Source of the DNA: Escherichia coli
Lineage (GTDB): Bacteria > Pseudomonadota > Gammaproteobacteria > Enterobacterales > Enterobacteriaceae
Reading direction: 5' to 3' (one strand)
DNA length: 60,886 bases
NCBI RefSeq assembly: GCF_003334385.1
Contig: NZ_QOWN01000028.1
This document shows, one piece after another, positions 57,528 to 58,634 of this stretch. The first letter of the stretch is position 1, and each line of letters starts with the position of its first letter. A model generated the notes under the pieces. The model was not told the origin of the DNA, did no database searches, and saw nothing but the letters and a program-made list of their open reading frames with translations. Position numbers and translations under genes: made by a program.

Positions 57528-57602
57528 GTGGGATACCAGAAGATTATGTTATTTATTATTCAGTAACTTTATCCACAATGATGGGCGTAATTAATTAAAT
57601 TC

Positions 57603-57815
57603 ATGGTATGTTTTTTAATTTATATCACTCTCCTTTTCATTCAGCGTGTCTATTTCATTTCCTCTGAAAAGAAACTAACTATTCACATTGTGCAGATGTT
57701 TCAGTTGTTATCACAGGCATTCTATAATCTCAAAATGTTTTTAATGATGGATATGCTCGGAGTTGGAGATGCAATTAATATTAATACAAATAAAAATATC
57801 CGGCAGGTATGCTAA
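57603..57815 (+). CDS. yncH: Small hypothetical protein YncH (70 aa) in an AT-rich tract
   Basis: ORF in strongly AT-rich DNA; coding status is not verifiable from sequence alone. Confidence 0.45.
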   Translation: MVCFLIYITLLFIQRVYFISSEKKLTIHIVQMFQLLSQAFYNLKMFLMMDMLGVGDAININTNKNIRQVC

Positions 57816-58634
57816 AAGGATAAATGGCGTTCTCTGTATTTATTCGCAATTATCTGTAGGACAAATATGGAGAGCTTGATGAGTCAGAGCTAAAACAGCA
57901 ATTGATTAATAAACATGTTGATTTATTCAAGAAAATGGATGTATTTTAAATGTTGATTCTTAATATAACCTAATCAATAGATTATCAAGTGAGAGCTACA
58001 CATTATTGGAGGGGCAGGGGAAAACACCATTTTGGGAACAATGCATCAGGTACTCTTACCACTGAAGCAAGATCATCCGGCACCAGGTGGTGGTGCAGTG
58101 CTTTGGAAATGGTCCCCTCGGGGGAGTTGTCATTATTTTCTATGCTATTTGCTTATTATATTCATCAGGTGAATTTAATAAATTCCTAATTTGAAATATC
58201 CACTATTAAGCTAGTGTTTAACGACGTTAAGATGGCAATGTGCAGATCATGTTATCAGGGTGGGGCGGTAGCGTATATTCCTTATACAAACCATCATTCA
58301 TTTCAATGATTGTTATTGAATTATTTATTGTTGTGAATAAAAAGACATTATGAATATTGGTTTGACTTTGCATATCAGGTTTTTTATTACTCGCTGTAAT
58401 GTACGAGCCTGTCGTGAATAACGTCGAGAACCCATCCGTTGCGTTTGTGATTATTTTGTTGACTAAACAGACACCCGTTTCTCTGAAGTAAAATCCCAGA
58501 CTAAATCATCACATAACCATGACATTTTTCTGATATTCCCCGGTAACGCCAGATGTCGACTCGCTTATCTCATCCGCCCGACATGTTGTACATGCAATAT
58601 GTGCGGATTATTATTCATTTTCACGGAGGTTGCT

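Follow-up and report, generated by a model that had tools for sequence, protein, structure and literature searches.

A probable H-NS-targeted junction and control region bordering a type VI secretion effector-cassette exchange site in Escherichia coli

Composition and genes of the tract between yncG and vgrG

The DNA under study was a stretch of 60,886 nucleotides from Escherichia coli (the window; 60.9 kb of contig NZ_QOWN01000028.1, assembly GCF_003334385.1), in which positions were counted from the first letter. An AT-rich tract with exact limits was located between yncG, whose stop codon ends at 57527, and vgrG, whose ATG lies at 58635. yncG (56910..57527, plus strand) belongs to the glutathione S-transferase family (GstA-like match, 3.4e-17) and forms the conserved left flank; vgrG (58635..60743, plus strand) encodes 702 aa (TIGR03361 match, 6.5e-188) and is the first gene of a vgrG-rhs cassette, with Rhs next in related loci. 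GC content was 0.354 (35.4%) over 57530-58634 against 0.494 (49.4%) for the whole window, and AT content was 64.6% over these 1105 bp against 50.6%, a composition that places the tract with xenogeneic AT-rich DNA. When 1105-bp windows were slid along the DNA (standard deviation of GC 0.037), only 0.4% were as low, every one of them overlapping the tract, which was the sole cluster below 0.40 GC at the ~1.1 kb scale. The AT-rich drop between the two genes, seen by eye in a preliminary description of the sequence, was thus confirmed by windowed GC as significantly low. In 200-bp windows GC ran at 0.285-0.37 between ~57400 and 58500, apart from 58000-58199, where it climbed to 0.41. The density of TpA steps was 0.088 per bp, the window mean being 0.048 (1.8× that mean; top 0.5%). 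Four other short dips to 33-35% GC, 200-260 bp each and all far shorter than the tract, were seen at 53721-53960 (apparently the pqqU-yncE intergenic region), 22161-22380, 25661-25920 and 32841-33100.

GC content was uneven by segment: 0.29 in the yncG-yncH spacer (57528..57602, no strand assigned, 29% GC, no Shine-Dalgarno sequence before yncH by eye), 0.31 in yncH, 0.28 in 57816-57988, 0.48 in 57989-58150 and 0.365 in 58151-58635. yncH (57603..57815, plus strand, 31% GC), a 70-aa ORF of family DUF5445 (PF17520) confined to Escherichia, was the sole annotated ORF of the tract, as described before, and other ORFs of at least 30 aa were not conserved. Close matches to YncH numbered 157, all named ones from Escherichia or Enterobacteriaceae, and only 12 representatives were present among 1.84 billion proteins; apparent distant relatives (P0125, P0123 and P0129; loci L020, L021 and L022) were rejected as coming from error-laden contigs. 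Between clades the pN/pS of yncH was 0.7-2.4 (a test of low power at ~10 substitutions per pair), with changes spread evenly across codon positions, and that of yncG was 0.09-0.21 against the window. Neither purifying selection, in this low-power test, nor homologues beyond the genus were found for yncH, which is, as far as its sequence tells, an ORF without demonstrated function that evolves like non-coding DNA. It is quite improbable that the AT-richness merely reflects an ordinary small-protein gene, namely yncH with its own promoter and terminator and no silencing target. Such a gene would fit an ORF that is intact in all examined loci, cryptic clades included (of little weight at ~10 substitutions per pair), the PGAP annotation as a YncH family protein and a weak hairpin downstream (58113-58125); but the hairpin was only as stable as shuffled sequence (z 0.06), no Shine-Dalgarno sequence was seen at a called start that itself varies (70-100 aa), and the pN/pS values, the evenness of the changes over codon positions and the absence of homologues outside Escherichia all count against it.

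Downstream of yncH lies the AT-richest spacer (57816..57988, no strand assigned, 28% GC), which is single copy and specific to the locus, and then a GC-normal patch of 141 bp (57989..58129, no strand assigned, ~48% GC), ended by the weak hairpin and a delayed T-run. The patch (single copy in 3576 genomes) was neither coding nor stably folded: folds of both strands were no better than shuffles (z -0.2 and 0.0), a tblastx comparison of 57528-58140 with every locus retrieved yielded no match below E = 0.4, and its 66-aa and 46-aa ORFs had no NCBIfam or PADLOC matches. The 66-aa ORF (57989-58189), considered as a gene, was rejected on the frameshift that it carries in the cryptic-clade loci L008 and L010.

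Cassette types and junctions in the yncG-yddH interval

For genome counts, segments were compared against 5426 complete E. coli genomes. The whole tract (at least 80% covered) was present in 3540, yncG (query 56300-57600, at least 80% covered) in 4546 and the ansP end (query 56300-57600, any match) in 5410, so that presence/absence polymorphism was combined with sharp breaks beside conserved genes, as at an island boundary. Homology between loci was broken at 57525 (the yncG stop codon), 58130-58154 and 58276/58277. Judged by the arrangements compared, the yncG-yddH interval is an exchange site for effector cassettes of type VI secretion (T6SS), with the tract at its left edge. Five types were distinguished: the window type, with yncH, vgrG, rhs, ISAs1 remnants and pptA; the P type, with yncG, ~205 unrelated bp and then PAAR-VgrG-DUF4123-effector, in which homology to the window (L005, L007) ends at the yncG stop codon, 57525; a small-ORF type, in which a GNAT gene accompanies a row of small hypothetical ORFs; a B2/ST131 type without yncG, with a 105-bp head remnant and then ISEc1; and an Rhs-fragment type, with an Rhs fragment followed by another VgrG. 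At the island boundary neither an integrase nor a tRNA gene as target nor meaningful flanking repeats were found, the locus had no tandem repeats of significance, and ISAs1/ISEc1 remnants were confined to the far end. Cassettes are presumably exchanged by homologous recombination in the flanks. A 16-nt inverted repeat (14/16 complementary; 56834-56849 and 58123-58138) has its arms near the ends of the yncG-yncH block 56841-58153, which is missing from B2-type loci; it is probably due to chance because these loci keep a decayed yncG remnant.

The tract consists of two units of different history. The left part (57528-58129, ~600 bp) is made up of yncH, the 28% GC spacer and the GC-normal patch, and segment 57816-58153 was found as a single copy in 3576/5426 genomes. 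The right part (58130-58634, 505 bp) forms the 5' portion of vgrG-rhs modules and goes with them at two places in the chromosome: 58126-58635 recurs in a second copy flanked by cusS and a further vgrG-DcrB-Rhs module, with 78-89% identity that continues into vgrG. This leader segment was present in 4614 of the 5426 genomes, where it occupied a median of 2 places and at most 4. Since homology with the cusS-linked vgrG copy (L002) begins at 58130, the segment 58130-58634 travels with vgrG-rhs and 57528-58129 is locus-specific. The island boundary proposed earlier therefore stands as far as the sharp junctions and the position of the tract at the island edge are concerned, and the insertion or deletion polymorphism to be looked for there was found; the right half, as part of the mobile vgrG module, does not itself count as a boundary. 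Matches labelled as plasmid copies were only to chromosomes mislabelled as plasmids.

The window-type architecture was kept in cryptic-clade Escherichia at 91-99% identity segment by segment, and by this comparison it is old. The non-coding tract diverges by 4-9% between clades and yncG has a synonymous divergence of ~0.15; divergence below the synonymous divergence of the neighbouring genes suggests some constraint on the non-coding DNA. What follows the same leader varies: cryptic clades (L008 and L010 5035-8213) encode a 659-aa VgrG along with a DcrB-like adaptor and Rhs, and L012 (5033-8213) has the window-type cargo, a 702-aa VgrG and then Rhs directly. L012 itself was a mosaic, 95-96% identical to the window over yncG and yncH (56910-57815) and 100% identical from 57816 onward, and this switch in identity places a recombination breakpoint in or just after yncH. 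Over 7.3 kb, L020 (CP044305.1; absent from the RefSeq set) matched the window at 100% except for 168 differences (82 gap columns) confined to the AT-rich tract (aligned to window 57405-58378), which most likely reflect long-read errors left unpolished in AT-rich DNA, and 22 substitutions within a 200-bp patch of its vgrG (window 59579-59778), which may stem from gene conversion from a paralogue. In K-12 the tract is kept only to 58567 and is then joined to a remnant of the rhsE core, vgrG being deleted, and in a BL21-derived strain (L001 13108-13451) vgrG is cut after 339 nt and fused to the Rhs core; these two deletions are independent.

Shared head, candidate promoters and leader of vgrG

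The head (58130..58276, plus strand) is common to all cassette types at the locus and to the cusS-linked vgrG copy; in L003, L006 and L018 homology spans 58154-58277. It ends in a 37-bp core, GTGCAGATCATGTTATCAGGGTGGGGCGGTAGCGTAT (58240..58276, plus strand), right after which all cassette types diverge, with no similarity between types downstream. Upstream of the core (within 58130-58239) the head was ~70% identical to the P type over ~60 nt (shuffle p ~0.008); resemblances to Fur box, CRP, IHF and RcsAB sites in the head, noted by eye, were too weak to claim. The core was 35-36/37 identical (~95%) in P-type and small-ORF loci including L016, with constant ends, and was present in 4739/5426 genomes at 1-3 copies each (further positions: L005 10433-10469, L016 6001-6037 and, on the minus strand, L017 143-163). 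Two core scans of species-representative genomes returned 0 and then 3 matches (2 Escherichia-type loci and 1 raw match in a Deltaproteobacteria MAG). When the window type was compared with the cusS paralogue, conservation of the core was no higher than that of its flanks. In the P type a strong terminator-like hairpin followed by a six-U run (-17.4 kcal/mol, z -2.4) draws its 5' arm from the 3' half of the core; the other arm is lost in the window type, and the core may be a relic of this hairpin.

A micro-ORF, MAMCRSCYQGGAVAYIPYTNHHSFQ (58232-58309, plus strand), has an in-frame ATG and is open in every cassette type, at a length of 19-32 aa where the core is intact and 13 aa in the ST131 remnant. 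It (MAMCRSCYQGGAVAY...) has no Shine-Dalgarno sequence, and its changes, counted by eye, were 3 synonymous to 3 non-synonymous. The sole nr entry for the P-type micro-ORF, 'cytochrome c-553 [Caudoviricetes]' (DAK96289.1) from a viral MAG, was rejected as most likely a misannotation from a CxxCH motif. That the core is a functional element heading every cassette here and at the cusS-linked vgrG, either as a shared promoter/operator or as the start of the micro-ORF, M(A)MCRSCYQGGAVAY..., is a tentative and on balance doubtful reading. As a promoter, the core may contain the -35 element TTATCA and the spacer, with the -10 element supplied at the cassette junction; any cassette recombined behind the core would then be expressed and silenced alike. 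An integron platform, with its fixed promoter beside exchangeable cassettes, offers an analogy for this reading, in that a conserved 37-bp head stands beside the start of unrelated cassettes with a promoter-like -35 element and spacer in the conserved part, but unlike in an integron no integrase or recombination sites were noted here, nor flanking repeats or a tRNA gene.

Two candidate promoters were placed in the leader. A consensus scan gave P1, TTATCA-16-TATATT (58252..58279, plus strand), which overlaps the 37-bp core, would give a leader of ~350 nt and has its hexamers retained in L002, the cusS paralogue. The second, a sigma-70 promoter TTGACT-17-TATTAC (58362..58390, plus strand; leader ~245 nt), is the best match given for the K-12 yncH>rhsE spacer from genomic SELEX (PMC3946193 Table 3) and was matched uniquely in the window; in the cusS paralogue, 8 bp of the promoter spacer are deleted and the promoter is not conserved. 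Promoter-like sites in the tract numbered 3 against 5.8 expected from composition-matched shuffles, and their density was ~2.5× that of the flanking 20 kb. A hairpin with AUCCG/CGGAU as its closing stem was found at the 3' end of the leader (58572..58630, plus strand), together with a GGA motif (58603-58607) and, at 58623-58630, the Shine-Dalgarno sequence ACGGAGG; the closing stem, across indels, and the two GGA motifs, one of them inside the Shine-Dalgarno sequence, were retained in L002. CsrA binding at these motifs is put forward as a candidate lead only.

The preliminary description had also suggested an unannotated small RNA or a long regulatory leader for vgrG. A small RNA found no support: Rfam families had no match in 56600-58900 at E up to 1, and the folds of the GC-normal patch (z -0.2 and 0.0) and of the hairpin that ends it (z 0.06) resembled shuffles. 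A long untranslated vgrG leader is plausible from the candidate promoters ~245-350 nt upstream, but leader folds from the two candidate start sites had z -0.04 (264 nt) and -1.66 (375 nt), and only 2/53 predicted pairs were compensatory, with only two lineages to compare; convincing covariation, or other support for a structured leader, was not found. It is very improbable that vgrG is controlled by a small RNA encoded in the tract or by a structured leader acting in cis (riboswitch or attenuator), even though the promoter positions and the retention of the AUCCG/CGGAU hairpin and of both GGA motifs near the Shine-Dalgarno sequence in the paralogue would suit this. So would a result from EHEC, in which a promoter swap at orphan vgrG1 yielded no VgrG1 or RhsF product and an unknown post-transcriptional block was suggested by the authors (PMC13141884; 2026); we infer that EHEC vgrG1 is the cusS-linked paralogue.

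H-NS binding and the proposed control of vgrG-rhs

Published K-12 binding data could be transferred to the tract, as K-12 is 99.95% identical to the window over 56600-58567 (window coordinate = K-12 coordinate - 1469337); they describe a strain whose leader ends at 58567 and in which vgrG is deleted. By genomic SELEX the K-12 yncH>rhsE spacer was bound by sigma-70 holoenzyme and was also marked as an H-NS site (PMC3946193). In vivo, a PhoB ChIP-seq peak lies at K-12 1527862, window 58525, in a region flagged as H-NS-bound from published ChIP-seq (PMC10294691 Table 1); the effect of the site on expression, which the authors could not assess, is listed as ND. The corresponding PhoB box, TATCAGAAAAATGTCATG (58518..58535, minus strand), is bound in vivo in K-12 and absent from the cusS paralogue. 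A weak K-12 RpoN SELEX peak maps to ~58197, and a sigma-54 promoter was therefore sought there; the candidate was rejected for its wrong spacing by eye and for a pattern scan at chance (302 matches against 324 expected).

The proposal that the tract is an H-NS target was borne out by occupancy published for the identical K-12 sequence, in vitro (PMC3946193) and as an in vivo flag (PMC10294691). AA/TT (A-tract) phasing at 10-11 bp, examined with curvature in view, was absent from the tract. The 10-bp H-NS nucleation motif (TCGATAAATT-like) had no match within one mismatch in the tract, which contained three matches with two mismatches, the total for the window being at chance level. With GC significantly low, H-NS occupancy reported and island junctions present, the observations that might have spoken against an AT-rich, H-NS-targeted island edge came out in its favour.

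The T6SS locus of Salmonella SPI-6 is under H-NS silencing. For EHEC, PMC7216683 (citing Wan 2017) describes repression of T6SS by H-NS, as does PMC13141884. The present tract resembles DNA under xenogeneic silencing by H-NS in its low GC, its richness in TpA, its variable locus, its H-NS binding in K-12 and the promoter-like sites inside AT-rich DNA; it differs from H-NS-silenced T6SS loci in that it belongs to an orphan effector island, not to a main secretion cluster, and in that no canonical nucleation motif was found. Because one spacer holds the PhoB site, the site for sigma-70 holoenzyme and H-NS binding seen both in vitro and in vivo, we infer that H-NS plausibly keeps vgrG-rhs silent. 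Taken together, the tract is probably a target of H-NS in which an AT-rich junction and a control region are combined, on the left border of the T6SS effector-cassette exchange site. H-NS would polymerize over the ~65% AT, TpA-rich DNA and occlude the promoter or promoters 245-350 nt upstream of vgrG, so that the vgrG-rhs operon would be off under laboratory conditions until H-NS is counteracted; the long leader may add a translational block. Several results count against this reading: the H-NS data come from K-12 with its shortened leader and deleted vgrG, close matches to the nucleation motif and A-tract phasing are missing, promoter-like sites are no commoner than in shuffled sequence, and neither the SELEX promoter nor the PhoB box is shared by the paralogue.

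It is unlikely that the tract is instead inert filler, that is, decayed leftovers of cassette exchange under AT mutational bias, on which binding of H-NS, RNA polymerase and PhoB would be incidental and without regulatory consequence for vgrG. Many PhoB sites in H-NS regions are transcriptionally inert (PMC10294691), yncH has a pN/pS of ~1, no function was detectable in the GC-normal patch and laboratory strains tolerate deletions starting inside the leader, all of which agree with filler. Filler does not account for the right half being kept with vgrG at a second locus at 78-89% identity, or for a non-coding divergence below the synonymous divergence of neighbouring genes; moreover, vgrG needs a promoter, and no other upstream non-coding space is available for one.

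The tract can be set beside two further known systems. As described by the Hill laboratory, Rhs elements of E. coli are composite, with GC-rich cores and AT-rich accessory parts, and the RhsE type has an associated vgr gene. The present locus resembles RhsE-type elements in the AT-rich DNA upstream of vgrG-rhs, in the paralogous copies at separate sites and in the ISAs1/H-repeat transposase remnants at the far end; compared with those descriptions, the left limit of the shared module lies here at ~58130, with yncH and the GC-normal patch outside the module. Orphan vgrG islands of Pseudomonas aeruginosa are, according to PMC8855297 and a mention in PMC13141884, co-ordinated with the main T6SS through RpoN/Sfa2 and RsmA. 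The vgrG described here likewise has its own long upstream region and could be under post-transcriptional control through the GGA motifs at its Shine-Dalgarno sequence, but unlike those islands it has no recognisable sigma-54 promoter (scan at chance).

Known biology and existing K-12 datasets account for most of the tract, as an expected case of H-NS-targeted AT-rich DNA, and the new details are modest: a division in two parts, precisely placed junctions and a yncH without detectable constraint. Something new might come only from the 37-bp core. The map of the yncG-yddH interval with its precise junctions is useful for pan-genome typing of T6SS effectors. For activation of vgrG-rhs, the DNA to be removed or replaced would be the control region of the module, 58130-58634, rather than the full 1.1 kb, and silencing by H-NS, if it operates as proposed, would explain why orphan vgrG-rhs toxin modules are difficult to express in the laboratory.
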